From NCBI RefSeq assembly GCF_036971445.1, contig NC_091471.1, positions 202,430,001 through 202,494,000 of the forward strand: 64,000 nucleotides of DNA, in the 5' to 3' direction. The notes beneath the pieces were generated by a model. The model was not told the origin of the DNA. It saw only the letters and a list, made by a program, of their open reading frames with translations, and did not search any database. Position numbers and translations under genes: made by a program. This document shows, in pieces, positions 7,316 through 63,373 of the stretch (the first letter of the stretch is position 1; every line of letters begins with the position of its first letter). The stretch is from Narcine bancroftii. Taxonomy: Eukaryota.

Positions 7316-7969
7316 AGATGATTCCAGCCATTTAAACCCATGCCGCCCAAATAAAACCCCAAATTAACCTACAACCCCGTACATTTTGAAGGATGAGTGG
7401 AAACAAGAGCACCTGGGGAAAATCCATGCAGACATTGAGAAAACATACAAACTTCTTATAGACAGCACTGGATTCAAACTCGGGTACAAGCATTATAATA
7501 TTATAACAGCGCTGGATTCAAACTCGGGTACAAGTGTTATAATATTATCACAGCGCTGGATTCAAACTCAGGTACAAGCGTTATAATATTATCACAGCAC
7601 TGGATTCAAACTTGGGTACAAGCATTATAATATTATCACAGCGCTGGATTCAAACTCGGGTACAAGTGTTATAATATTATCACAGCGCTGGATTCAAACT
7701 CGGGTACAAGCATTATAATATTATCACAGCGCTGGATTCAAACTCGGGTACAAGCTTTATAATATTATAACAGCGCTGGATTCAAACTCGGGTACAAGTG
7801 TTATAATATTATCACAGCGCTGGATTCAAACTCGGGTACAAGCGTTATAATATTATCACAGCGCTGGATTCAAACTCAGGTACAAATGTTATAATATTAT
7901 CACAGCGCTGGATTCAAACTCAGGCACAAGCGTTATAATATTGTCACACTAACAGCAATGCTAAGCATG
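7316..7969 (-). mobile_element. tRNA-derived SINE whose head is expanded into a minisatellite
   Basis: SINE body 7316-7462 and A-box-side head cactaacagcaatgctaagcatg at ~7947-7969 flank the array. Confidence 0.8.
7463..7946. repeat. Minisatellite, 11 x 44 bp (cagcgctggattcaaactcgggtacaagcgttataatattatca)
   Basis: Units start at 7463, 7507, 7551, 7595, 7639, 7683, 7727, 7771, 7815, 7859 and 7903, with only a few substitutions each and no spacers. Confidence 0.97.
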
Positions 7970-9761
7970 AATCATATGTAGCTAAGGAAAGTAAGGGAGG
8001 AAATCGTAGCATCTACTGCTATAGTCTTCCAAACTTCTACGGATCAGTGGGTGCCTCCTGAGACTTGGAAAATTGAAAATGTTACTTCTTGTACCAAAAA
8101 TGGTGCAGAGGTAAGTTCAGTAGCAGATCAGTCAGCTTCAACCCAATGATGGGAAAGGACTAGGTGCAATAAGCAGGAACAAAATTATGCGTCTCTTGTT
8201 CCCGTGTTGTTTGATTAGAGATAACAAGCATAAATTTGTTCAAAGCTAATCCTGTCCAACTCACTTGAGAGCCCGATTTGATGAAGTAACGGAGGGGCTC
8301 AATGAGAGAAATGTAGTTGGTTTGCATGAATTTCCAAAAGGCTTTTGAGAAAATGCCACTGAGGATTTTGTTTTGTTATAAAGATTTAATGACACGCTGC
8401 AGCAAAGGGGATTGTTACAGCATGAGTTTTCTTCAGCAAATGGTTATATTCAATCCTGTTGAGATGAAATAAACAGCACAGCACAATTACATTTCATGGC
8501 AACTATATAGCTGCAAACAGAAACTAATGCAAAATTAAAGATGTGAAGTTATGAAACAGGGTTGAAAAACTTGTCTGAAGGAGCTAAGAATTCTCCTAAT
8601 CTTGTGTTGTACAATTTATAGAATTCACAGGAGAAGCAACATAAGCAAATCTATATCGTCTTCTCCAGCTGGCTGAGGATTTTATTTATCTGTAGGACAT
8701 GACATTTATTGTCACTCTTTAATTAACCCTTGATTTTATTGTCCATTTTGAAGACAAGTCCACATTGGTGGTCTAGACTCAAGGTCACATAAAGGCTACC
8801 AAGGTAGGCAGATTCCTTTACTTGAAGGATATTTGGGGTTTGTACAGTGACCTAATAGCTCATAGCCTTCATTGCATCTTGCTTCTTTTTAAGTTTCAGG
8901 TTTACTTAAATATTGGAATTAAAGTTCCTCATTAGCTGTGAATTTGAACTTGTGTCCTTGAATCTATTCTCTGGACAACTATCCATTAACATAGTCATTT
9001 TACTATTAGACTCCAACTAATATAAGCATTCTAAAGAACCCCACAAAATCCAATCCATATTTTTAAATTCTCAATTGAAATTTAGAATGTTTCTTGCAGT
9101 TTTATTGATTTTATTTTCCCCTCACAAAGCTGGACTGAATAGACGAATATCTTTTTTCACAATAGGAATAAGTATAGTGTGAGTCCAAGCATGTACTTCT
9201 GGGGCCTGGGGTCAAATCCTGCACAGAATAATTGAATGAAGGTTTCTTGTGTTTGGCTGGAAACTGAGAAAGTCTTTGAAAGGACTTTTCGTAGTAGTTT
9301 CAGTCAGTTCCTGATTGGCCCAGATCCATCATGCACAGCTGTTCTCACTTTGGCACTAAATTGGTAATCTCAAGAGGGTTGTGTGGTAGGTAAGGGAAAA
9401 ATGTCACATTGATACAGTTGGGTGTGCTCTTCAGTATGAGTGTTGGAACAGAACAAGAAGGCACTTCAGTTTGCATTGACAAGTGTGGCTTCCCTTAACA
9501 ATGTTCCATTCCCAAGTAATAATTCATTCTTCATCAGCGTAAGAAACACGAAGTAAATGTTGATGTATTTTCAATTAACGGGGAAAATATTTAATTTTCA
9601 CCCAAGGAATGGGAATGATGAGGTGCCATAAAGGGATGGCTCTGTGAGAAGAGGATTCTGTTGAATGGCCTGAAGAAAACTGTTCTTTCAGGCTGCTAAT
9701 TAAGTTAAGAAATAAATTTGTGGTTTAGATTAAATTCTAGATTGAAGTGGCTGGGTATTAG

Positions 9762-10714: not shown

Positions 10715-10814
10715 AACTATTGGCACTTCCTTCAGTTCTTGATGTTCATATTGTTGATTTTACATTGTCCTGGATTTTGTTGTTGGTTTTTATCTTTATC
10801 TTATTATTCAACAG

Positions 10815-11482
10815 ACTGAAAAACCTCACAAAGATAAGCGTATACAGAGCCGTTGTCATACCCACACTCCTGTTCGGCTCCGAATCATGGGTCCTCTACC
10901 GGCACCACCTACGGCTCCTAGAACGCTTCCACCAGTGTTGTCTCCGCTCCATCCTCAACATCCATTGGAGCGCTTACATCCCTAACGTCGAAGTACTCGA
11001 GATGGCAGAGGTCGACAGCATCGAGTCCACGCTGCTGAAGATCCAGCTGCGCTGGATGGGTCACGTCTCCAGAATGGAGGACCATCGCCTTCCCAAGATC
11101 GTGTTATATGGCGAGCTCTCCACTGGCCACCGTGACAGAGGTGCACCAAAGAAAAGGTACAAGGACTGCCTAAAGAAATCTCTTGGTGCCTGCCACATTG
11201 ACCACCGCCAGTGGGCTGATAACGCCTCAAACCGTGCATCTTGGCGCCTCACAGTTTGGCGGGCAGCAACCTCCTTTGAAGAAGACCGCAGAGCCCACCT
11301 CACTGACAAAAGGCAAAGGAGGAAAAACCCAACACCCAACCCCAACCAACCAATTTTCCCCTGCAACCGCTGCAATCGTGTCTGCCTGTCCCGCATCGGA
11401 CTTGTCAGCCACAAACGAGCCTGCAGCTGACGTGGACTTTTTACCCCCTCCATAAATCTTCGTCCGCGAAGCCAAGCCAAAG
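10815..11482 (+). mobile_element. Young 5'-truncated RTE-clade (BovB-like) LINE with 12-bp TSD
   Basis: Open frame TKISVYRAVVIPTLLFGSESW...QLRWMGHVSRMEDHRLPKIVLYGEL...CNRC...IGLVSHKRAC. TSD attattcaacag at 10803-10814 and 11483-11494. CpG-rich. Confidence 0.95.
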
Positions 11483-11714
11483 ATTATTCAACAGGGAGTG
11501 ATTAGGGATAGCTTGTGATATAAGAAATATTAAATTCATATATGAATTCAGAAGGAAGTGAGGGAAACAGTCTTGACTAGTACAGTCAGCGCTATGACAT
11601 TATGGTATCTTTATAGATTTTAGGCAAGTTTTTATTTGAAGGAAACCGTAAAAATGACAAACTAAAAGGAACAAAGATATTAAATAAAATAAGAAATTTG
11701 AATACATAGTTGAA

Positions 11715-13464: not shown

Positions 13465-14513
13465 ATAGATTTTCTTGTTTAGCTGGATTCAGAATTGGCT
13501 TGCCTGTAGAAAGCAGATGGTAGTAGTAGATAGGAAGTATTCTGCATGGAGGTCGGTGACTAATGGAATTCCGCAGGGATCTGTTCTGGGACCCCTGCTC
13601 TTTGTGATTTTTATAAATGAAATGGAGGAAGAAATAGAGGGATGGGTCAGTCAGTTTAAAGATGATATGAAGGTTGGAGATGCTGTGGATAGTGTAGAAA
13701 GTTGTCATATACAACAGGATATAGGCAAGATGAAGAGTTGGGTGGAAAAGTGGCAGATGGAGTTAAATCTGGGTAAGTGTGAAGTGATGCATTTTGGAAG
13801 GGAAAACTTGAAGGCTGAGTACATGATTAATAGCAGAATTTTTAAAACTGTATTAGAAAAGAGGGACCTTGGGCTCCAAATCCATAGATCTCTCAAGGTT
13901 GCTGCTATGGTTAATAAGGTAATTAAGAAGGCTTATGGTATGCTACCCTTCGTTATTCAGGGGATTAAGTTCAAGAGTCATGAGGTAATGTTGCTGCTCT
14001 ATAAAACTCTGGAACATTGTGTTCAGTTCCGGTCGATTCATTACAGGAAGGAAGTGGAAACTGTGGAGAGGATGCACAGGAGATTTACCAGGAAGATGCC
14101 TAGATTGGAGAATTTATCTTATGAGGGATGCTTTTGGGGTTAAAAAGGATGAGAGGGGACTTATTATGTCTACAAGGTTATGAGTGATCAGCCAACACCA
14201 TTCTATTGGGGTGAGAGTAGCAAACACCTTACAAAGTGAGGGGAGGAAAGTCTAGGAGAGATGCTATGGGGATTTCTTTTATATAAAGAGAGTTGTGGGT
14301 GCCTGGAATAGATTAACAAGGATGGTGGTGGAGGCTGGTACAAAAGGGACATTTAAAATCCTCTTGGACTGGCACATGGATGCAGTAACATTAGGGTTAA
14401 GGGTATGAGATAGGGAAGGTTTAGTTTGTTCATTTGGTTAGATTGATCAACATAACATTGAGGGCAGAAGGGTCTATAGCATGCTGTTATTTTCAATTTT
14501 CTATGTTCTAAGT
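13465..14513 (+). mobile_element. CR1 LINE, RT domain to 3' tail
   Basis: ORF 13475..14143 reads WIQNWL..RKQ.V...V.NGIPQGSVLGPLLFVIFIN...F.DD.K...W.EKWQM..N..KC.VMHFG; tail ttctatgttcta. Confidence 0.9.
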
Positions 14514-15526
14514 TGTGATACTACAGATCTATCACCAATGTACATAGTGTATATAGTTACTGTATCTAGACTGTGCTTACAGCGATTGGCTGAGAGCTAA
14601 GCCACACCTATTGTTTGGGCCTTAAAGGGTTGTGTCCCTAGCCAGGTCGGATCATTCCGGACTGGTCGGCCACCTGTGAAGAGCTCCGGTCTTTTGCTAA
14701 TAAAAGCCTTGGTTTGGATCAACAAGTCTTTGGTTCTTTCGACGAGCTCTACAATTTTATTAGCAAAAAGAATTTTGTTTGAAAGGGATGGAGCGTTTAA
14801 CTCGGCCAGAAAAACTTGATATCGACCCACAGTCAGCTACAGCCTTCAAAGCCTTTAACTTCTGGCTGCTGAACTTTGAAAACTTCCTGAGATTCATTCA
14901 GGTAGAGGAGGATAACCAGCGTCTAACAGCATTGCTGTCTATGGTGTCCTTGAGAGTCTACGAGAACATCCAGGATGAGACCACTTACACCGCAGCTATA
15001 AAGGTACTGAAAGGACTGTATGATCAACCGGTGAACAGAGTTCATGCCCGGCTCGTGCTTGCGTCGAGGAAGCAACAGCCCGGTGAGTCCAGCAGGGCAT
15101 ATTTACAAGTATTAAAGGCATTGGGCAAGGACTGTAACTGTGTGGACAAAACTGCTGCCGAGATCACAAACGATCTCGTCCGGGATGCCTATGTGGCTGG
15201 GCTCAGATCGAATGAAGTGAGGCTGCGCTTGCTCGAACAAGGGGTAGAAAAACTAGAGGACGTGGCCCAGATTGCAATCACAATGGAGGATGCAGCCTTA
15301 AAGTCCACCGAGCTCTCTAGGGACTGGACCCCTCGTTCTGATGTGAGTAGAGTGCCCTTCTACCCTACCCCTGACGACCTGTCGGCTGCTGCTACCCTGC
15401 CCCCTGCGAACCCAAAATGTTATTTCTGCGGGAGGGACAAGCACAGCAGGTCCCAGTGCCCAGCAAGAAAAGCCAGGTGCCAGAAGTGCCTTAAAAACGG
15501 ACACTTTGCTGCAGTCTGTAGGTCTA
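14514..15526 (+). mobile_element. Truncated Gypsy LTR retrotransposon: 5' LTR (14514-14753) plus gag, flanked by an 83-bp direct duplication
   Basis: LTR is TG...CA with AATAAA and is homologous to the solo LTR at 33567. Gag follows. 14431-14513 is identical to 15527-15609. Confidence 0.9.
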
Positions 15527-15537
15527 CATTTGGTTAG
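14788..15537 (+). CDS. gag: Gypsy Gag (truncated after two CCHC zinc knuckles)
   Basis: Uninterrupted ORF MERLTRPEKLDIDP...RKQQPGES...LVRDAYVAGL...CYFCGRDKHSRSQC...CQKCLKNGHFAAVC. The last codons come from flanking DNA. Confidence 0.88.
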   Translation: MERLTRPEKLDIDPQSATAFKAFNFWLLNFENFLRFIQVEEDNQRLTALLSMVSLRVYENIQDETTYTAAIKVLKGLYDQPVNRVHARLVLASRKQQPGESSRAYLQVLKALGKDCNCVDKTAAEITNDLVRDAYVAGLRSNEVRLRLLEQGVEKLEDVAQIAITMEDAALKSTELSRDWTPRSDVSRVPFYPTPDDLSAAATLPPANPKCYFCGRDKHSRSQCPARKARCQKCLKNGHFAAVCRSTFG

Positions 15538-15824
15538 ATTGATCAACATAACATTGAGGGCAGAAGGGTCTATAGCATGCTGTTATTTTCAATTTTCTAT
15601 GTTCTAAGTAAAGAGAAAATCTATAAAGAATCTACTACAAACCATATAATGCATATAAACACTCACACAAGTAGTTCAGATGAGTTGCACCAGCCAGGCA
15701 CATTAAAATGAGGTTCCAGCAGTTGAAAAATGCTAATTTTGTTGATGATCCTTCTTCACTAGAGGTAGCAAAAAAAAATAGCACCCATGTGGCCTTTCAA
15801 GCTTACTCAATATCACAAATAATC

Positions 15825-25872: not shown

Positions 25873-28599
25873 TTTTTTATTTTTTTTTAAATTTTTCACA
25901 CTATGAACGATATTAACCAAAATACACACAAACATTTCTCTCTTGAATATACAGTGTCATTTTCTCCCTTTTTCCACCTCCCTTCCCTCCCTCCTTCCCA
26001 CCCCCTCCCTACCCACTAAACGTTCAACATATACAATACAATAAACCCATTAAACAATGTCATCACACAATGAAAATAAACAAGAAAATTGTGTCATCTA
26101 CTTTTATAGACTGGGTCAGTTCATTTCGTCTTCTTCTCATTCTGTCATTTTAGGTGGTGGAGGTCCGTGGTAGGACTTCTCTGTTGTGTTCCATGTACGG
26201 TTCCCAAATTTGTTCGAATACTGTGATGTTATTTCTTAAATTATATGTTATTTTTTTCCAATGGAATACATTTATTCATTTCTATGTACCATTGCTGTAC
26301 TCTCAGGCTCTCTTCTGATTTCCAGGTTGACATTATACATTTTTTTGCTAAGGCTATCATAATAAATATTTTTTGAGCTTCATCCAAATCAAGGCCTAGT
26401 TCTTTACTTCTTATATTACTTAGAAGAAAGATCTCTGGATTTTTTGGTATGTTGCTTTTTGTGATTTTATTTAATACCTGATTTATATCTTCCCAAAACT
26501 TTTCCACTTTCTCACATGCCCAAATTGCATGTACTGTTGTTCCCGTTTCCTTCTTAAAGCAAAAACATCTATCTGATAATGTTGGGTCCCATTTATTTAA
26601 CTTTTTTGGCCTGGTATATAGCCTGTGTAACCAATCATATTGTATCATGTGTAACCTCGTGTTTATTGTATTTCTCATAGTTCTGGAGCATAGCTTTTCC
26701 CATTTTTCATTTTTTATCTTTATGTTTAGATCTTGTTCCCACTTTTGTTTGGGTTTACAGCTTATTTCATCATTCTCTTTCTCTTGCAGCTTGATGTATT
26801 ACAGTAAATCCAAAGACGGGGTAAGATCCACTGACACCAGCATCGTACAGACCAATATCTCTACTTAACTCAGATTATATGATAATAGCTAAACTATTAG
26901 CAAACAGATTGGCTGACTGTGTACCAAAAAAAGTAAAATGAGATCAAACTGGATTTATTAAGAAAAGACGAACAACAGACAATATCTGTAGTTTCATTAA
27001 CTTAATCCATGCAGTACAAGGAAATAAGAAGCCAACAGTGGCCGTTGCTTTAGATGCAGAGAAAGCCTTTGACAAGGTAGAATGGAATTATTTATTCAAA
27101 GTACTACAGAGGTTCAACCTACCAGACAAATATATTAATTGAATTAAAGCATTATATAATGGACCATTGGCGAAGGTGACAATAAATGGATATATATCGA
27201 ACCAATTTAAATTAAGCAGGTCAACTAGGCAGGGATGTCCACTACCTCCCTCACTGTTCGCTTTAGCTATAGAACCTTTGGCAGAACTGATAAGAGCAGA
27301 AAATAAAATAAAAGGGATAAAAATAAAAGAGAAGGAATATAAAATCAGTCTATTTGCAGATGACATCATAGCATACTTAACAGAACCAGAATTATCAATA
27401 AAAGAATTACATAAGAAATTGAAGGAATATGGAGAAGTATCGAGGTACAAGATCAACGCAAATAAAAGTGAAGCGATGCCAATGGATAATGCGGATTTCA
27501 CAAAGTTTAAGAAAGAATCACCATTTAAATGGCAAACACAAGCAATCCGATACGTAGGTATTCGACTAGATAATAATCTAGGCCATCTATACAAATTAAA
27601 TTATCAGCCATTAATGAAGAAATTGCAAGATGACTTAGAACATTGGAAAGATTTACCACTAACACTGATAGGAAGGTTAATTTGCTTTAAAATGAATATC
27701 TTCCCAAGGATACAATACCTATTTCAATTGTTACCATTTCCCTTAACAGAGAAATTCTTCAATGAGCTGAAGAAAATAATAAGGAAATTCTTATGGAAAG
27801 GGGGGAAACTGAGGATAGCGCTAGATAAATTAACAGAATGGTACAAATAAGGGGGCTTACAGCTACCAAACTTTAAGAATTATTATAGAGCATCACAATT
27901 AAGATACCTATCAGACTTTTATCAAGCAAGGGAAAAACCAGATTGGACCAGATTAGAGCTAGATAAAATAGGGAAGAAGGTACCAGAACATATACTTTAT
28001 AAGTGGGATGAAAAGCTGGTGCAACATAGAAGTTCACCAGTACTGCACCATCTGCTCAACATTTGGAAGAAGATTCACGTAGAAAGGAAAAAAACAAATT
28101 ACCAACTACCAAAATTATTATTGACGCAAAATCAATTGATCCCTATCACAATAGATAACCTTTCCTTTAGAGAATGGGAGAGAAAAGGGATCAAAAGAAT
28201 AGAAAATTGTTTTTTTGGAAATAATTTATTATCTTTTGAACAAATTAAGTACAAATATGGTATAACTCACAGTCTTCTTTTTTTCTTTGGCTTGGCTTTG
28301 CGGACGAAGATTTATGGAGGGGGTAAATGTCCACGTCAGCTGCAGGCTCGTTTGTGGCTGACAAGTCCGATGCGGGACAGGCAGACACGGTTGCAGCGGT
28401 TGCAGGGGAAAATTGGATGGTTGGGGTTGGGTGTTGGGTTTTTCCTCCTTTGTCTTTTGTCAGTGAGGTTTGCATACCACCAACTGAAAACCTACTTGAA
28501 GGACAAATTGGGAAGCAGGCTAAGGTTACCAGAAGGAAGCAGCTTTGAATATGTGATTACAGACACAATGATAATTAAAAGATTTATAACAAACATGTA
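25873..28599 (-). mobile_element. Younger L1/Tx1-clade LINE with 5' inversion (3' part minus 25873-26798; inverted RT part plus 26798-28599)
   Basis: Poly-T start; minus ORF 26241..26678 is the C-terminal zinc domain; plus ORF 27167..27850 has TRQGCPL.P.LFALAIEPLA...LFADD. 15-bp TSD cttcagatatttctt at 25858-25872 and 28600-28614. Confidence 0.93.
28273..28468 (-). mobile_element. RTE 3'-end fragment nested in the younger L1
   Basis: Reverse complement of ~11297-11482. No TSD seen. Confidence 0.92.
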
Positions 28600-32892: not shown

Positions 32893-33566
32893 TTACATCA
32901 GAGAGGATGTGTTGGTTCATTCATTTTATCCTACAGACCGCAGCACTTGGTCTAGTTGGTTAGTGCTGGTACTGCCGAGTCTCCCTGAATGCTGAAAATT
33001 AAATTTCCCCATCCACATAACATTTTTGTTCTCTTCAGTGCTTCTTCCAGATAATGTTCAACATGAAGGAGCATTGACTCATCAGCTCAGGGGAGCGGGA
33101 AGTGGTAATCAGGCAGACATTTCCTTTCCTTTGTTTGACCTGTGACTTCAAAGAATCTAGTGACAGTAGAGTGTAACCATGAAGCTGTGTAACCATGCAG
33201 TGGTGAGAGATTCCTCTCTGCAACCTGAGTAATACTATGCTGCTACCTCAGGTGGATCTGTCCTACTGGAGGAACAGGTTGCAACCAGGGACTGTGGTGG
33301 ACCATTTAAGAATCACTAATCTATAATTTGTCTAGAGCCACATGAACCAACCTAGGTAAAAAAGGCAGTTTACCTCCTCTGAAGAGCATTAGTGAATCAG
33401 GTGGGCTTTTACAGATTTTTGAAAGTTTTTGTGGTCATCAATACAAATATTATACTGGACAACAACTTTTTTTCTAAAGGTTTGCTTCCTGAAATAAAAT
33501 TTAGGATTATGATAGACAACTTCAAGCTGAACAAAAAGATAATTTCAGGTTTTCTGTATCGCTCTG

Positions 33567-33795
33567 TGTGATAGTACAGTTTTTATCACCAATGTGTATA
33601 TGTACAGATGGTAGTGTAGGATGACTGTGATTGGCTGAGAGTGTAGCCACACCTACTGGCAGGTCTTAAAGGATTGCTCCTAGCCAGACCAGGTCATTCT
33701 GGACTGGTCGACCTGTTTGTGATACGCTCCAGTCTTTTAGTTAATAAAAGCCTTGGTTTGGATCAACGTCTTTGGTTCTTTTGACCCGCTCTACA
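33567..33795 (+). mobile_element. Solo Gypsy LTR related to the LTR at 14514
   Basis: tgtgata...gctctaca with shared gattggctgagag and aataaaagccttggtttggatcaac; TSD ctctg/ctttg. Confidence 0.9.
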
Positions 33796-34041
33796 CTTTG
33801 GAAGTTGGAGAAACATTAAATCAACTTTTATTGAATTTAGCATGTTTAATTTCATAATGATGCTGACACATAGTGTTAGTTCATCTGACATCAAAATGTT
33901 TTGCAGCTGATTTTAATTTGTACTCAGTATCTGATGCCTTTTGTGTCAGTGACCAACAGTAGTCGGGCAGCATTAATGAATTCCAGTTGCCCTGATACTG
34001 CTTTTCCATGGTCGCAATGTCCTGGTGAAACTTTTCACCAT

Positions 34042-37000
34042 TGATATGCTCTATCAATGATTCCAAAGCCGTAGAATGAGGAGCAATAGGCTTTATTATA
34101 CTTTAGACTTGTAGCTGGCCCGATTTGACTGAGGACAGGGTGAGGGAGGTTGACCTTTATTCCAGGGTCACAAGGGGAGGAGTTACCAGGGAGCGAGTCA
34201 TCAGTGGGGGACAGGCCAACTACCCATTGATAGTCATATATACATATACTTGTATCACCACATTCACCCCCTCTTTTAAACAAAACCCCACCGGGTTAAA
34301 AGTCCCAGAAGGTCAGCCAGTCGAGTGGTGTCCTTTGCCTCAGTGACCAGCGCAGTTCCACTGGTGGTTCAATGGTCGGCTCCATTGCCAGTTGTGCGTC
34401 TTGAGGCTGGGATGGAGGGCTGGCTCCGTAGGAGGTGGGGCTTGGCTATATGTTTGGGCTGTTGTGGTGGTCGGTGCAGCTGGAGCAGGGTGCGGGGGTA
34501 TGGCGTGGTGGGTGGGGGTGGGTCACTGATCTGCACAGAGTCCTTGACAGGGACAGTATGGGTTTAGGTAGGACCTGGGTTGAAGGGGTGGGGACTGTGC
34601 AGGGGTCTCTGCCATGCGCCAAGTCCCGGATGGGGACCATGTCCTCACGGCTGTCCGGGTACACCATGTAGGCATACTGAGGGTTGGTGTGCAGGAGTTG
34701 CATCTCTTCGACCAACAGGTCAGATTTATGACCCCTCATGTTTCCGCAGCAGGAAGGTTCCCGGGGATGAGAGCCAGTGTGGTAGTGTGTTTCCGGTCGC
34801 CAACGTCCTGGGGAAGGAAAACATGCGTTCGTGTGGGGTTGTGTTGGTAGCGGTGCATAATAAAAATCGATGGCATGGAGTGCTCCCGGCAGGATCTCCT
34901 GCCAATGGGAAACTACCAGGCCTTTGGATTTAAGAGACAGGAAGACAGCTTTCAAACTGTAGCGTTTTCTCTCTCTACCTGGCCATTCCCCCAGGAGTTG
35001 TAACTGGTCGTCCTACTAGTGGCAATGCCTCTAGCCAATTGGTACTGCCACAGTTCGTCACTCATAAAAGGGGTCCCCCGATCACTGTGGAAGTAATTCG
35101 GGTAAATATGCTGTGGAGCACCTTTATGACAGTGGATGAGGTCATGTTGGGACAGGTGATGGCAAAAGGGAACCTGGAGTACTCATCAATGATGTTCAGG
35201 AAGTATACATTCCTTTTGGACAAGGGCAGGGGTCCCTTGAAATCAATGCTGAGTCATTCAAAAGTGCATGTGGCCTTTATGAGGTGCGACCTGTTGGGCC
35301 GGAAGAACTGTGGTTTGCATTCCGCACAGACTGGACAGCGTCTGGTCAATGACCTGACATCCTCAATGGAGAAGGGAAGGTTCGATACTTTCATGAAATG
35401 GAACAATCTCATGACTCCAAAGTGGCAAAGAGTGTCACGGAGGGGCTGGAGGAGGCTGAATTGCATGCTGGCGCAAGTTCTCTGGGTAGGGCATTGGTGG
35501 GGGGGGGGGGGGCGGGGGGGAGATTGTGGGGGGATTGTTGAGCTTTCACAGCCGGTATAGGATATCATAGTTGTAGGTGGAAAGCACGATTCTCTATCTC
35601 AGGATTTTGTCAATTTTGATCTTACCCCACAATTTGGTATTGAACATGAACGCAATGGCTCATTGGTCCATTAGCAGGGTAAATCTCTTCCCAACCAAGT
35701 AATGACGCCAGTGGTGTACCGCCTCAACGATGCCCTGGGCCTCCTTTTCGACAGAGGAGTGCCGCATCTCAGGACCATGAAGGGTGTGGGAAAAGAAAGC
35801 TACTGGTCTGTCTGCCTGGTTGAGAGTATCGGCGAGCATGAAGTCAAAGGCATCGCTTTCCACCTGAAATGGGATGGATTCATCCACAGCATGCATAGTG
35901 GCTTTAGCAATGTATCCTTCAATCTGGGTGAAGGCTTCCAGGGCTTCTGCCGATAAGGGAAAGGTTATGGATCTTACCGGGTGTTAGCCCTTGGGCACTC
36001 CTTGAGCATAATAGTAGGAATCCCAGGAACCTTTTTAGCAGCTTGAGGTTGTGCGGGATCAGGAGTTCCATAAGGGGATGCATAAGGTTGGGGTCAGGGG
36101 CAATGACACCATTTGCCATCGGGGGCAATTACACCATGTGCCACGATGCATCCAAGGAGGGCCAGACAAGTTGTGTTAAAACCACACATGTCCTTGTTGT
36201 AGGTCAGATTGAGGGATTTAGCAGTGTGGAAGAATTTGGCGAGGTTTGCGTTCGTGGTCCTGCTGGTCATGGCCGCAGATGGTGACATTATCTAGAAAGG
36301 GGGATGTGGCTGTCAGTTTGTGTTTGTCACCATCCGATCCACTTTCCTCTTAAACACGGAGTCAGCACTGCTAACTCCGAAGGGTACCCGGAGGAAGTGG
36401 TAGAGCCTGCCATCCTCTTCAAATGCAGTATACTGGCAGTATCCTGGGTGTAGGGGTAGTTGGTGGTATACCAACTTTAGGTCAATGTTAGAGAACACCC
36501 TGTACTGGGCCATCTTGTTGACCATGTTGGCAATCCAAGGAAAGGGATATACATCCAGCTCCCTGAACCACTTGATCGTTTGGCTGTAGTCAATCACTAT
36601 ATGGGGTTTACTTCTGCCTCTGACCACCACGACTTCGGCTCTCCACGGGCTGGAGCTGGGCGCTATGACCCCCTCTGCCAGGAGTCGCTGCACCTCGGAT
36701 TTTATGAATGCCTTGTCCTCAGCACTGCAGCATCTGCTCTTAGTCACTGTAGACTTACAGTCCAGGGTCAGGTTCTCAAACAATGATGGTGGGGGTATGC
36801 AGAGGGTAGAGAGACTGCAGGAGGTGGCTGGCTGTGGGGGGGGGGGGGTCCATGAGTGGGGTTTGTACACAGTGATGAGCAGTGTGGCCCCCCCAAACAC
36901 CATCGTGACATTTCTGAACTGGCTTTGGAAATTCAGCCCCAGAAGGATCGGTGTGCAGATCTGAGGCATTAACAGTAAATAGAAATTGCCATAATGTTTA

Positions 37001-38474
37001 CCACACTCTACAAATGATGCAATACAATAACCGCAGATCTCGGCAGATTTGTCCTTTGTGGCCATTGATATCGTTCCGCTAATTGGTCTGACGGGGAGAG
37101 AGAGTTTGTGAGCAGTGTTCGGGTCGATGAAGCTTTCAGAGCTTCCACTGCCAAACAGGCAGTTAATTTGTTTCCCATTTACCTCAATCTCCATCATCAA
37201 GTGGGTGATCAGGTGAGGGCTGCCCTGATCCAAGATGATGGAGCTAGTACCAAGTCGCCATTGCTGTTGGTGTGGGAGCCGGTTTGGTAAGATGGTGACC
37301 CCCATGTTGACCACGCAGTCTCACCAGGAGAAGTGGATGAAGATGGCAGAAGTGACATCATCCACGATGGCGGAAGTGGAGTTGGGTAAGATGGTAACCC
37401 CTGGGTCACATACGAGTGGAGTCAGGTTCGTAGGCCGACTCCCAGAGGTGCAGGCAGCGCTGCTCGACAGGGGAGGCTTCAACTTACATCCTCTCTTGTA
37501 GTGTCCTTTCTTCCCACATCCCGAGCAAGTGGCTTATCTCGCCTGGCAGCATTGCCAGGGGTTCTTCTGCTGGCCACAGAAGTACCACTTCGGGTGCTCA
37601 GCTGTGGCAGTGGCAGCAGCGGCAGTGGGTCAGGACCCTGTACAGAGGCGGTCTGAAACTCTGTGTCCCAAAATGGCTGCACCTGCGGCCCACACATGGA
37701 GGTCCTGTTGCCGGCAGCGATGGATTCAGTGTGATGGTGGTCTGAATCTTAAGGCTTAGTGAGCTAGAGGGCTCTCTGAAACAGCAACCTGTCTTCCTCA
37801 GTAGTTACTGGCAGATGTAATTGGACCTTACCCTAGCAACGCATGCGTCCCAGATCAGCTCTTCCACATACCGGTCTGCCGATTCTGGGGCTGGGATATT
37901 GCCCCTGTATTCTCACCCAAGACCATGCAAGGCTCAAAAGAAATAGTCCAGAGTCTCACTAGGTTGCTGTTTTCTTGAGGCCAGGAGATACCATGAGTAG
38001 ACTTCATTTACCCATGGTTTATAGAGGTTGCTGAGCTCAGTCATGGCTGTGGAGTAGGTTGTGCTCACAGTAACTTGTGTTTCTTCTCATCAGAGTCCAC
38101 GAGGTCCTCAGAAGTTTCCAGAAATTCTGTGAAGCACTCGATCCACTGCTCGTACAGCTCTGGGGCTCTGGGCGTCTGCAGGTTGAGGTCTAGTCTGTCG
38201 GGTCACAGCAGTTTGTCCATCCCATGTGGAAAAGTTAAAGTATAATAAATTGATAGGCTCTATCAATGATGAAAGTCATAGAGTGAGGAATAATAGGTTT
38301 TATTGCACCTTAGACATAGCTGGCCCAATTCCATGTGTTCGAACAAGAACAGGGAGAGGGAGGTCAACCTTTATTCCAGAGTCACAAGGGGAAGAGTTAC
38401 CAGGGAGCAGGTCACCAGTGGGTGATGGGCCAGCTAACCATTGACAGTCACATATATATACTTGTTTCACCACA
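34042..38474 (-). mobile_element. Full-length but decayed Gypsy LTR retrotransposon (LTRs 38251-38474 and 34042-34262; gag-PR-RT-RH-IN)
   Basis: gag ATG at 38220; PR LFGSGSSESFID; RT IAPSSSPWRA...IDYSQTI...YPFP...IDL...YHQ...VPFG; RH VESDA...RPVAFFS..L...SSVEKEA; IN HH-CC zinc finger. PPT aaaagagggggtgaa; TSD accat/gccat. Multiple stops and frameshifts. Confidence 0.93.
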
Positions 38475-38563
38475 GCCATGTTCATCACTGACTGCACCAA
38501 GATCAGCAGGGAAGAAGTCCAAGTGCGAATGCAGAAAATGAATTTTAAATGACAAGTTGCACT

Positions 38564-38945
38564 TCAAGTCAAGTCACCTTTATTTATCATTCATACCATG
38601 TTTGCACAGTAAAAATGAGAAGGCGTTTCTCGAGGACCATGGAGCATATTTATATAAATATAAGTTAGAATAGAAGTTAAACACAATGAAATATTAAAAT
38701 ATTAAGACATATCCAGTAGAAGTCCATGATATATTATCCACCTATGTTCTAGGAATTCAGGAGCCTGATGGCTTGGGGGAACAAACTGTTGCCCAATCTG
38801 GACATAAGGACCCAAGTGCTAAGGGAGACCAGTTTATGTGAGGGGTGTGTGGGGTCCTTCACAATATTTAGTTCCTCTCGCCTGTATCGAGTGCTGTAGA
38901 TGTCCTTCATGGTAAGAAGAGAGGCCCTAATGGTCTTTTCTTGGT
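38564..38945 (-). mobile_element. Rex-Babar LINE 3' fragment nested in the Chapaev-like element
   Basis: (tcaag)n tail; ggagcctgatggcttgggg...aaactg resembles the 4331 and 52295 copies. Confidence 0.65.
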
Positions 38946-39929
38946 GGGCAATATACTAGTAGACTTAGAATCTGACAGAAAATCACAAAAATAGGTTGTA
39001 TCTAAAGAAAAATGTACGTGATAGAAAAAAAACTTAAGGTAATGTCATGATCAGCAGCCCAAAATCCATAAAAATCACCCAAAAGTGTTCAAGAAGAAAA
39101 ATTTTCATTGACCAGGGTTAGTTGTTAATTTTACAAATTCTAGATTATTAACTAAATTTAAATTTTACAGCAGTCATGTTTCTATGTGAAACACTACACT
39201 GCCCTCCAATAATCTATTGTACATTCTCACAAATGTCCCTGTAGCTGTGATCTCGAGATTTAAACTCAGGTCATTGGATTGCTAGGCCAGGGCCTGTATT
39301 GCTGGTCTTGTATTTTAACCACTACATAACTACCATACCCATGAATGGTATTAAGTAGCATTTTGCATCACTAACAGCTTCACAATTATGAAGATCTGCT
39401 GCATGTTCAGACTCCATCTCATTTAATATGCTTGAAGTATCACAGAGCAGTGTTATCGGGTTTCTATATGCAACTCTATTGCATCAAATTCAATGTAGCA
39501 TTACTCTAGTGATCTAATTACACATTTTCTCAACTGCTGGCATCCAGCCCTGCAGCTGCAATCTTGGCTGCCAGCCTTTTCACTCTTGAAGGGATATACC
39601 ACTACACAAGCAGTGCTCTGTATGCTAAAGGGGTGTGTTGCTAATTAATGAATGGATGTTGCGGTGGTGGGAAGGGTGAAGGATTGCTCACAGAGAGACT
39701 AACAGACCTGGTCAGAATGGAAAAGAATAATATCATGTACTATGTGTAAGGAGACTATATACAACAGCCAGACACTCTTGATGGGAGGATGCCAGGGAGG
39801 TCCATGTAAGAAGTAACACTAGATGAATGCAGACTATGAATGGCTGCATTTTAGGAAAGCCTACCATGCAAATAAATGCTGTGTCTGCTCTCCCTACTCC
39901 TGTGGCTGAAAAACAAAGTCCGTCTATGT

Positions 39930-41904: not shown

Positions 41905-43164
41905 CCTTCCTTCCTTTGGCTTGGCTTCGCGGACAAAGATTTATGGAGGGGTAATGTCCACGTCAGCTGCAGGCTCGTTTGTGGCTGACAAGTCCGATGC
42001 GGGACAGGCAGATACAATTGCAGCGGTTGCAAGGGAAAATTGGTTGTTTGGGGTTGGGTGTTGGGTTTTTCCTCCTTTGTCTTTTGTCAGTGAGGTGGCT
42101 CTGTGGTCTTCTTCAAAGGAGGTTGCTGCCCGCTGAACTGTGAGGCGCCAAGATGCACGGTTTGAGGCGATATCAGCCCACTGGCGGTGGTCAATGTGGC
42201 AGCCACCAAGAGATTTCTTTAGGCAGTCCTTGTACCTCTTCTTTGGTGCACCTCTGTCTCGGTGGCCAGTGGAGAGCTCGCCATATAACACAATCTTGGG
42301 AAGGCGATGGTCCTCCATTCTGGAGACATGACCTACCCAGCGCAGTTGGATCTTCAGCAGCGTGGATTCGATGCTGTCAGCCTCTGCCATCTCGAGTACT
42401 TCGATGTTGGTGATGAAGTCGCTCCAATGAATGTTGAGGATGGAACGGAGACAACGCTGGTGGAAGCGTTCTAGGAGACGTAGGTGATGCCGGTAGAGGA
42501 CCCATGATTCGGAGCCGAACAGGTGTGTGGTTATGACAATGGCTCTGTATACGCTAATCTTTGTGAGGTTTTTCAGTTGGTTGTTTTTCCAGACTCTTTT
42601 GTGTAGTCTTCCAAAGGCGCTATTTGCCTTGGCGAGTCTGTTGTCTATCTCGTTGTCGATCCTAGCATCCGATGAAATGGTGCAGCAACTGCACGAAAAC
42701 CAACAAGGTCGGGTCAGATATAGCAATGAGCTCTCTGAACCCTTCTCCATTAACAATGGCGTGAAGCAAGGCTGCGTTCTCGCACCAACCTTCTTTGCAA
42801 TCTTCTTCAGCATGATGCTGAAACAAGCCATGAAAAACCTCAACAATGAAGATGCATCCGGTACCGCACGGATGGCAGTCTCTTCAATCTGAGGCGCCTG
42901 GAAGCTCACACCAAGACACAAGAGCAACTCGTCCGTGAACTACTCTTTGCAGACGATGCCGCTTTAGTTGCCCATTCAGAGCCAGCTCTTCAGCGCTTGA
43001 CGTCCTGTTTTGCGGAAACTGCCAAAATGTTTGGCCTGGAAGTCAGCCTGAAGAAAACTGTGGTCCTCCATCAGCCAGCTCCCCACCATGACTACCAGCC
43101 ACCCCCCCCCCCCCCCCACATCTCCATCGGGCACACAAAACTCAAAACGGTCAACCAGTTTACC
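41905..43164 (-). mobile_element. Young RTE-clade LINE with 5' inversion (minus 41905-42686; plus 42686-43164) and 12-bp TSD
   Basis: TSD taggatgaggtt at 41893-41904 and 43165-43176. Plus part has GVKQGCVLAPT and ELLFADDAAL; minus part is the same 3' region as 10815. Confidence 0.95.
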
Positions 43165-45132
43165 TAGGATGAGGTTAATTGGGCTACATCAAAAATCCAA
43201 CCACAATGACAGTGAGAGAGTTGTAAGAAGTCTAAGTTGGTCCAGGCACTGAACCAGACATCAGATACAGCAAAATGCCCTTCTATTTTGCACATTGTGA
43301 TATTATAAAGGGGTCCTGTGTCTCCAACCCCAGGATGAAATTAAGGGAAGCTACAGATTTGGAGTATTTGTGAATCCAGAGAGCTACCTCTGACAATACT
43401 GTTGTAAAAAACCTGGGTTCTGTCCTCAGAAATGTATGGAAGATTGATGTGAACTATCTTGTTTAGATATTCAAGATGCTATGTCACTAGGATTTATAAA
43501 TGTGTAATCCAATGGAACCATTTGTTCACATCCAAAATACCAAGGTAAACTCTGCATTGTGGAGATGGATTGCCTTTGGTACCTAAAAGAATAAATCTTT
43601 GATGTATCTTGATTTTCAGGAGACTTTTCCACTGGGTCTCTCCCGCATGCTTGCTTGTGCTAATAAATGCATATCACTTAACAGCTCCAAACTCTCGGTG
43701 GCTCTTTCAATTACAACACGAGGAGGTCTTTGTGAAAAGGCAGGACCACAGGAAGCACCTCCCCCTCCCTCCTCCCCAGAGAAAGTCAGAATTCTGAAGC
43801 GCTTAGGGTTCACTGAGGTAAATTGCCCCCTGAGATAGTGGATGAAATTATATTAAATAAGAAGGAAGTACGTTAAAAGTTTTTTAAAAAATCAGAATCT
43901 CTCAGTAACCAGTTTGTGGCATTTGATCATTAAATATAAAAGAAAACAACTCAACTCCTTCAGAATGAAACCTGAAAGCTAAATGCTTTCAAAAAGCTTG
44001 TGGTTCACACTTCCTACTCCTATAATCCAGGATGTTGAACACGTTTCCTCCTGCCTTTCAATTATTTATTTACTTCAATTATTTACATTCATTTTGTAGT
44101 ATTTAAATGTTTAACAATCAGAGAGTGGAGAGGGTCAGCTCATGCATCCTCCCACCCATAGAGCAACAGTGGGCAGGTGGTCATTGAATTAGTTCTGGTG
44201 AGTGCTGGCAGCAAGCCACATCACAGCGCCATGACCTTTATGATCACAGCACAGCTCTCACTGATAGTCAACAGTATCCAGGATCCGAAAATAAGTCATG
44301 AGCCACGTCTGAAGTGGATATGGCTTTTCACTCAATGGCCAGTCTGTAACCTGACGATTAAAAGCAGTAGAATAAATAAACCATGACAGCTGAGAATGGG
44401 CACAGAGCTGTATTGTTCACTATCTATGGTTGTAAACAAGCTGGGTGTTGAGTGAGTGGGATTACTTTCTATTCAGAAATGTACCCGTTTGGTAAGGAAG
44501 AGAGGAAGAATTGAACTCTGGAGATGGTTCTCTTTTCTCTCAGAAGGTCATGAATCCTGCTTTCCTCTTTCCACGGGAAAACATGTAGCTTTTCCTTCTA
44601 CCACAAAGAGTTACATTGATTTCTCTGATACTACATTGGGCCTCCAAATGGGGTTAATGCCATTAGCTGCTTATTGGACCAATCCAGACTGCCACACGCC
44701 ATGCTTCCCATGCACTGGCTTCTGGCATCAATTGTGGCTACAACATTAATCAAAGCTCAGTGAAAGCCTCCCTGACGATTTGAATCACCAACACCTGACA
44801 GGTTGATCCTTATTGAATCTCACATTGGAGAAGTACCTGCTGTGTAAAGTCCTCCTCTGGTGCCTTTTCATCTTTTGTCTGTCAGCTATTCCTACTTCTT
44901 CCCTAATCCTCGCTGAAATTCCTAGTATTCCAACATCAAAAGCAGCCCCACTAGACCACCCAGGACCACAATAGAACTGTTGAGAAAGCAGCCAAAAACA
45001 GAGAAGCACAAGCAGAAACTTATTTTCAGATGTTAGAATTAAGTTTTGCAGTCATATGTTAACTAGCCGGCTTAAATGGCAAAGCAGCAATTCACCTGCA
45101 TTTTTCGATTTTGTAAGCCTTCAAGAAGTATT

Positions 45133-45217
45133 CTTTGGCTTGGCTTCGTGGACGAAGATTTATGGAGGGGGTAAAAGTCCACGTCAGCTGCAGGCTCGTT
45201 TGTGGCTGACAACCAAA
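45133..45217 (-). mobile_element. ~85-bp RTE 3' terminal insertion with 11-bp TSD
   Basis: TSD caagaagtatt at 45122-45132 and 45218-45228. Confidence 0.9.
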
Positions 45218-62750: not shown

Positions 62751-63373
62751 CATTGGATAATATAAATTACATGGAACAACAAAGATTTCACTTCATGAAC
62801 ACTTATGGGTGTATTTTATGGATTTTAGGCTACTGAACACAAAAATAACCTTAGAATGTTCCTATCACATACCGTTTTTCAGGCATAACCTATTTTTGTG
62901 ATTTCCTGTCATATTCTAAGTCTACATCAAGCACACAAAACTATGAAGTGCTGTATGTCATTCAAAATTAATTTTCTGCATTCACATTTGGACTTGCCTA
63001 CTGATCTTAGTGCAGTCAATGACAAACTTGATGAAAGGTTTCACCAGGACCATGGAAAACCGATATTAGGGCAACTGGAATCTACCAATGCTGGCCGACT
63101 ATTTTTGGACACTGACATGAGAGGTGTCAAATATTGAGTACAAATGAAAATCAGCAGTAAAACATTTTTAGGTCAGTTGAACTAGCGCAATGTGTCAACA
63201 ACATTATGCGATTAAACATATGAAATTCAATAAAAGTTAATTTAATGTTTCTTAAACTTTCTAGGTGATATAACAAATCTGTAATTATCTTTGTGTTCAG
63301 CTTGAAGTTGTCTATTGTGATCCCAAATTTGTTTTCAAGAAACAAATCTTTTGAAAAAAATTGTTGTCCAATG
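62751..63373 (+). mobile_element. Non-autonomous Chapaev3(CMC)-like DNA transposon, uninterrupted copy
   Basis: ORF remnant MKCCMSFKINFLHSHLDLPTDLSAVNDKLDERFHQD; termini cattggataa...ttgtccaatg. Confidence 0.75.

Follow-up and report, generated by a model that had tools for sequence, protein, structure and literature searches.

The closest described parallels are the LTR retrotransposons Tf1 and Tf2 of S. pombe, Tj1 and the Tf1/sushi group of chromoviruses, which like the elements described here lack a tRNA site. In Tf1/sushi, again as in these elements, the site lies just past the CA at the end of the LTR and is complementary to the element's own LTR, with a core of about 11 nt (PMC7175516, PMC4600332, PMC10085805). 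In Tf1 the 11 bases at the start of the RNA pair with this site, and cleavage by RNase H falls between bases 11 and 12 (PMC7175516), and two extra “pretzel” duplexes are needed, which makes a three-duplex structure (PMC10085805). Besides Tf1/sushi, self-priming has been listed for Tcn1, a chromovirus, and for the copia elements TAR/Houba/Osr-1, plant lineages in which it has been predicted from complementarity alone (PMC6317226). The predictions for Tcn1 and TAR/Houba/Osr-1 imply that the mechanism arose outside Tf1/sushi, but these elements belong to another superfamily or lineage than the present clade and live in other hosts. The available text of PMC6317226 does not name an animal non-chromovirus Gypsy group among them, and a literature search that covered few subscription papers and no Repbase reports gave no report of self-priming in an animal non-chromovirus Gypsy clade.

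Leader and LTR in two families of the Narcine bancroftii window

The window (the whole stretch of 64,000 nt of Narcine bancroftii DNA that was analysed) carries on its minus strand an element, hereafter family 2, that is a Ty3/gypsy LTR retrotransposon. The domain order PR-RT-RH-IN, the LTRs, the TSD and the polypurine tract are all present (Table 1), Pfam protease and RVT_1 were matched on 36316-37320, and the best PDB matches were Ty3 Gag-Pol (8e-103) and Ty3 RT (1e-79). Its ends were confirmed by joints of the empty site that skip 4438 nt (50 contigs of the public sequencing run X1). The gag ATG, at 38220, is located 30 nt from the LTR and is preceded by an out-of-frame ATG 5 nt before it. 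The LTRs show 33 differences over 215 aligned bases, and folding of the 116-nt 5' junction does not give the helix (z 0.30), both indicating an old, decayed copy. A shorter stretch, folded from the start of the paired segment, does form the helix with a mean pair probability of 0.61, while z-scores for the folding of whole regions (0.30 and -0.78) were uninformative.

Table 1. Features of the two Gypsy families in the window
Feature	Position	Strand	Details
Family-1 5' LTR	14514-14753	+	paired segment 14692-14705
Family-1 putative primer-binding site	14755-14768	+	14/14 complementary to own LTR
Family-1 gag fragment	14788-15526	+	same gag type as family 2
Family-1-type solo LTR	33567-33795	+	183 identities, 41 mismatches to family-1 LTR; joints near 33560-33800
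Family-2 Gypsy element	34042-38474	-	4433 nt; LTRs, TSD, polypurine tract, broken gag-pol
Family-2 3' LTR	34042-34262	-	221 nt; LTR-LTR alignment
Paired segment, 3' LTR copy	34092-34105	-	14/14 complementary to leader, ends in AATAAA
Family-2 polypurine tract	34263-34277	-	sequence
Broken gag-PR-RT-RH-IN frame	34296-38220	-	three-frame translation, homologs; several stops and frameshifts
Putative self-complementary primer-binding site (leader), TTTATTATACTTTA	38236-38249	-	sequence, pairing; no TGG
1-nt spacer A, LTR end to putative primer-binding site	38250	-	sequence
Family-2 5' LTR	38251-38474	-	224 nt, TG...CA; LTR-LTR alignment
Candidate self-primer, family-2 5' LTR	38299-38312	-	decayed: 11 WC, 2 G-U, 1 mismatch
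5-bp TSD, upstream copy	38475-38479	.	4/5 match to 34037-34041; contig joints

The leader of family 2 follows the LTR end (...ATCA) after a single A and is perfectly complementary to a segment of the 3' LTR, a Watson-Crick (WC) run of 14 that was reached in 0 of 3000 dinucleotide shuffles (maximum 10). With the real 5' LTR the WC run is no longer than 6, a value reached in 200 of the 3000 shuffles, and the best 14 positions allowing G-U were equalled in 21 of 1000; taken alone, the 5' LTR match of this copy is weak. The leader of the plus-strand family 1 pairs with its own LTR as completely as family 2 does with its 3' LTR, again in 0 of 3000 shuffles. The LTRs of both families are dissimilar (130 identities, compared to a shuffle mean of 125 and a maximum of 136), and when the leaders are crossed between families the runs are only 3 and 7. 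All this agrees with the original prediction, down to the LTR end, the spacer, the 13/14 pairing with the 5' LTR that counts two G-U pairs, the distance of gag from the LTR and the absence of the 14-nt run from shuffled controls. One qualification applies. The covariation between two divergent families is real, but the shared gag type makes them two members of one clade and not independent origins. On folding, the helix was found in the short family-2 stretch, and in the 22 families described below, but not over the 116-nt junction.

The family-1 fragment (LTR, leader and gag as far as the zinc knuckle) is enclosed in an identical 83-nt direct repeat (14431-14513 and 15527-15609) that takes the place of the 5-bp duplication, which suggests insertion through repair or recombination rather than by integrase. 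The family-1-type solo LTR and the family-2 element are two insertions 250 nt apart that split an abundant host repeat (33467-34013 and 38515-39110), of which an inverted copy lies at 62777-63360. Family 2 has a second AATAAA (38368-38374 and 34156-34161), which in the 5' LTR lies upstream of the paired copy by 71 nt. It may act as a TATA-like box or as another poly(A) signal, and would then place the start further upstream. Elsewhere in the window there is a young repeat family, 93-96% alike (10809-11486, 28283-28469, 41910-42583 and 45129-45212), whose open frames of 160-330 aa had no Pfam family match, and a tandem array with a 44-nt period (7374-8036). Rfam gave a single chance-level hit, under its gathering score, and the table of sequencing-run differences had none inside the paired segments among 40 of its 1994 rows, too few to test them.

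Covariation across the clade

An alignment of 18 homologs led to 80 of the 481 metagenome loci that were confirmed, and to 10 loci from bacterial genome bins carrying eukaryotic DNA, many of the loci stemming from a few data sets. (The bins G001, G002, G003 and G004 had 93, 130, 10 and 4 Gypsy RNase H matches, so they hold much eukaryotic DNA.) The gag start was present in 49 of the 90 loci, or 51 copies counting the window; L029 and L049 were dropped for having less than 90 nt upstream, and the other 47 loci, which have 90 nt or more, make up the 49 copies used here together with the two families of the window. They fall into 25 families at 75% identity, of which 23 were scored, each by its first identifier and not by its best copy. 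L020 and L022 were set aside since their contigs begin less than 120 nt upstream, the decayed siblings L009 and L033 were left out, and the register of L024 was shifted 2 nt by hand. L020 and L029 conform once the other contig end is read, and in the short sequence upstream in L022 no clear stem is seen. In L024 (190-260) the LTR end and the putative primer site are present twice, 44 nt apart, and the first base of the L049 contig coincides with the 5' edge of its paired segment (positions 1-13), a single case from a library of a type not known.

For the scoring each family was anchored at the CA that maximises pairing, a biased rule, for which two other results serve as unbiased checks. In a blind search for the longest stem, 36 of the 49 copies had a downstream arm beginning at CA+1 (the remaining 13 being decayed, junction variants or short contigs). 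Where a second-LTR match was available (24 rows), it fixed the LTR end at the CA in 16; of the other eight, four were decayed, two truncated and two spurious. WC pairing at leader positions 1-12 is found in 21-23 of the 23 families, and then in 19, 17, 14 and 11 of them at positions 13, 14, 15 and 16, and in 4-8 from 17 on. The helix, fixed at CA+1, measures 10-19 nt (13-17 in most intact copies), and its mean pair probability is 0.77-0.98 in 22 families when folded from the start of the paired segment. The loop between this segment and the leader is of 24-87 nt, the spacer is A in 18 of the 23 families and the ATG is located 14-46 nt from the start of the site. A TGG tRNA site was found in none of the 23 leaders.

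Among the 23 families there are two to four pair types at each of positions 5-13. Leaders match their own partner at 12.4 of 13 positions on average and crossed partners at 7.9, with only 2 of 506 crossed pairs reaching 12, and swapped partners matched the own-partner pairing in 0 of 20000 permutations. At positions 7-13, which are outside the hexamer that ends the paired segment, the values are 6.6/7 (own) and 3.4/7 (crossed). Compensation can also be followed over short distances: L012, ca. 1% from its siblings, carries a single change that is shared by its two LTRs and mirrored in its leader, and mirrored changes like these were found in L042/L045 (7% divergence) and L001/L003 (17%). In L008 (the same insertion as L070) a change at position 2 of both LTRs is unmirrored in the leader, and a mismatch at position 14 is common to L007, L009 and L033. 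L040 and L064 have a mismatch at position 1, together with a junction variant CA-G-T and no RCCW after the paired segment; they perhaps form a sub-lineage whose spacer is 2 nt long.

As controls, 40 regions around other Gypsy RNase H matches from G001-G003 were taken, in which we found 28 repeat pairs ending in CA. In these other Gypsy clades TGG was present within 10 nt in 24 of the 28 pairs, the other four being long repeats and probably not LTRs, and the best leader-LTR stems were of 3-8 nt, like those of a 3' flank control. The RT tree separates the same two classes. On one side of a branch 1.75 long (support 99) there are 24 self-pairing rows and six named homologs, the latter entered by protein alone, with leaders read in other copies, and on the other side 22 TGG rows. 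This is a quick tree with a long-branch warning and no chromovirus among its rows, and it leaves out L004, L023, L040 and L083 (no RT downstream), W_fam1 (without RT) and 18 of the 40 control regions.

The weak 5' LTR match of the family-2 copy, and crossed pairs that still agree at more than half of the positions, might suggest chance complementarity of AT-rich sequence. The latter agreement is due to shared bases, and at the level of the clade chance is refuted by the shuffle, swap, flank and other-clade controls, leaving it a negligible probability. The pairing of leader and LTR is confirmed as a real, strongly covarying and clade-wide feature.

The hexamer that ends the paired segment is AATAAA in 10 of the 23 families, ATTAAA in 5 and another one in 8 (GTTAAA, TTAAAA, GATAAA and TGAAGA among them). 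The HIV-1-type poly(A) hairpin also buries an AAUAAA-like hexamer in a helix near the 5' end, and retroviruses keep a separate tRNA site; in the present clade it is the putative primer site that forms the other side of the helix, and the hexamer varies. One could ask if the helix serves mainly to mask the poly(A) signal of the 5' LTR against premature cleavage, priming being left to another RNA. The two canonical hexamers together account for 15 of the 23 families, the segment lies at a distance from the leader that is usual for the signal, and AATAAA is the best-conserved LTR motif of animal Gypsy elements (PMC3601003). However, the helix is kept in the eight families with another hexamer, even where TGAAGA pairs with TCTTCA (L027), and 7 of the 23 families (one of them a decayed copy) lack A(A/T)TAAA between -150 and the end of the LTR. 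In L002 and L003 the canonical hexamer is not paired by the leader and lies 11 and 32 nt downstream. Masking, moreover, does not require the arm to start at CA+1, and would leave the element without a primer. We consider it improbable as the main function, and it may be a side effect. What is constant is the register, in which pairing begins at CA+1, the primer-binding position. Of the original prediction, the view that the structure is selected and not due to chance is upheld by the compensatory changes in 23 families and by the swap and other-clade controls; the framing as a leader/AATAAA pairing holds for the pairing and for the register, but not for AATAAA as an invariant. It put forward no mechanism; the best fit is self-priming.

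Probable self-priming and its alternatives

An LTR element requires a primer with a 3' end adjoining the LTR end. Here there is no tRNA-type site and the sole complement found is a segment of the own LTR in primer register, which points to self-priming: we think it likely, from the layout of these sequences and the analogy with Tf1, that the leader is the primer-binding site and that the element primes minus-strand DNA with its own RNA. Transcription would start at or just before an initiator-like motif that lies upstream of the paired 3' end by ca. 11-14 nt. The first RNA bases would fold onto the primer-binding site. The cut in the RNA would fall immediately past the terminal AAA, next to a small hairpin beginning with RCCW, and would probably be made by the RNase H of the element, as in Tf1. 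RT would then extend the new 3' end into U5, and the R downstream of the cut would support strand transfer. By copying the primer into the site again, plus-strand synthesis would keep both in step; primers are known to be copied into cDNA ends (PMC11042837). In many families the hexamer at the primer end probably doubles as the poly(A) signal of the 3' LTR.

Regarding the start, positions 13-8 resemble the initiator TCAKTY (cited in PMC3601003), putting +1 at position 11, and position 10 is G in 21 of the 23 families. The initiator-like score is at least 5/6 in 12 families with +1 at position 11, compared to 0-3 at 12 other offsets, in a test that was picked after the motif had been seen and in which the other 11 families score below 5/6. 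TATAWA at about -30 was found in none of the 23 families. Since pairing often extends over 13-19 nt, more than a primer of 11 nt would cover, the start must be variable or situated further up. Regarding the cut, RCCW comes right after the paired segment in 18 of the 23 families, and a hairpin with a stem of at least 4 pairs beginning at RCCW was found in 14, compared to 6.3 in shuffles (0 of 2000 reaching this number). A splice-acceptor-like motif upstream of the paired segment was discarded as a candidate (5 of 23 families and 4.6 in shuffles).

The primer might also be the 3' end of the element RNA, i.e., the copy in the 3' LTR, ending at AAA or trimmed back to it and pairing end-to-end or between two RNAs. 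Because the segment is present in both LTRs sequence cannot separate them, and a site that begins with T3-4 could pair with an A-rich end. In the family-2 copy it is indeed the 3' LTR that matches better, but this is explained by decay (15% LTR divergence). The AAA is encoded in the genome and followed by RCCW, whereas poly(A) cleavage normally takes place 10-30 nt past the hexamer, and the 5' boundary near 11-16 nt, together with the initiator-like motif, suits a capped 5' end; priming from the 3' end is therefore unlikely. Finally, a tRNA fragment or small RNA of the host could act as primer, with the self-complementarity serving dimerisation, packaging or start-codon control. Internal tRNA segments do prime some copia elements (PMC10886601, PMC6317226), and the short distance to the ATG, which the helix touches in some families, would suit start-codon control. 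A fixed host RNA, however, is at odds with a site that varies by family and tracks its own LTR, and we regard this explanation as very improbable. Self-priming by the LTR segment is the reading that we retain.

The clade in comparison with self-priming elements

The homologs are compact single-frame Gypsy polyproteins of ca. 1200 aa with a distinctive RT motif, and at least 1066 protein clusters among 8000 candidates passed 1e-30. Those named come from a shark, a ray, a psyllid, whipworms, a sea anemone and a woodlouse. The RT of the window groups with the shark and ray proteins, consistent with a cartilaginous fish as host, and that of L029 is nearly identical to the woodlouse protein. No Chromo family was found on P0004, nor in the precomputed Pfam lists among the 27 and 120 homologs listed, and the viral contigs searched contained no relatives. 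Cigr-1, a compact element of ca. 4.2 kb with LTRs near 245 bp, a single ORF near 1200 aa and a 5-bp TSD, resembles the present clade in size, LTR length, single ORF and TSD, and perhaps the self-pairing clade is Cigr, to judge from this size and layout. Cigr has been listed in tunicates, molluscs and annelids (PMC6238403, PMC8556966).

This is probably the known mechanism of Tf1/sushi in a lineage for which no report was found and with a simpler anatomy. In contrast to Tf1/sushi, the integrase has no chromodomain at its C-terminus, the leader is very short and so is the loop, and the paired segment ends in a hexamer resembling a poly(A) signal, followed by RCCW and often by a small hairpin. 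The two extra duplexes of Tf1 have no support here: they were not found by a simple longest-stem test, from which short duplexes could escape (7335 and 989 of 10000 permutations with swapped partners). In the present clade start and cut are predictions from sequence. We suggest, tentatively, a more specific picture in which a widespread animal Gypsy clade would have evolved self-priming independently of Tf1/sushi, one segment of 11-16 nt acting as initiator, primer and poly(A) signal of the 3' LTR, with the cut right after the hexamer beside the hairpin and a downstream R for strand transfer.

For animal Gypsy elements, priming by tRNA is regarded as the norm and the chromoviral sushi elements as the exception. 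If self-priming is true of the clade described here, a large tRNA-independent group would represent a separate origin of the mechanism, with a simpler RNA structure. Such elements would evade control by tRNA fragments and would go unnoticed by annotation software that searches for tRNA sites, and their sequences would offer an exact and testable prediction of where the transcript starts and where it is cut.
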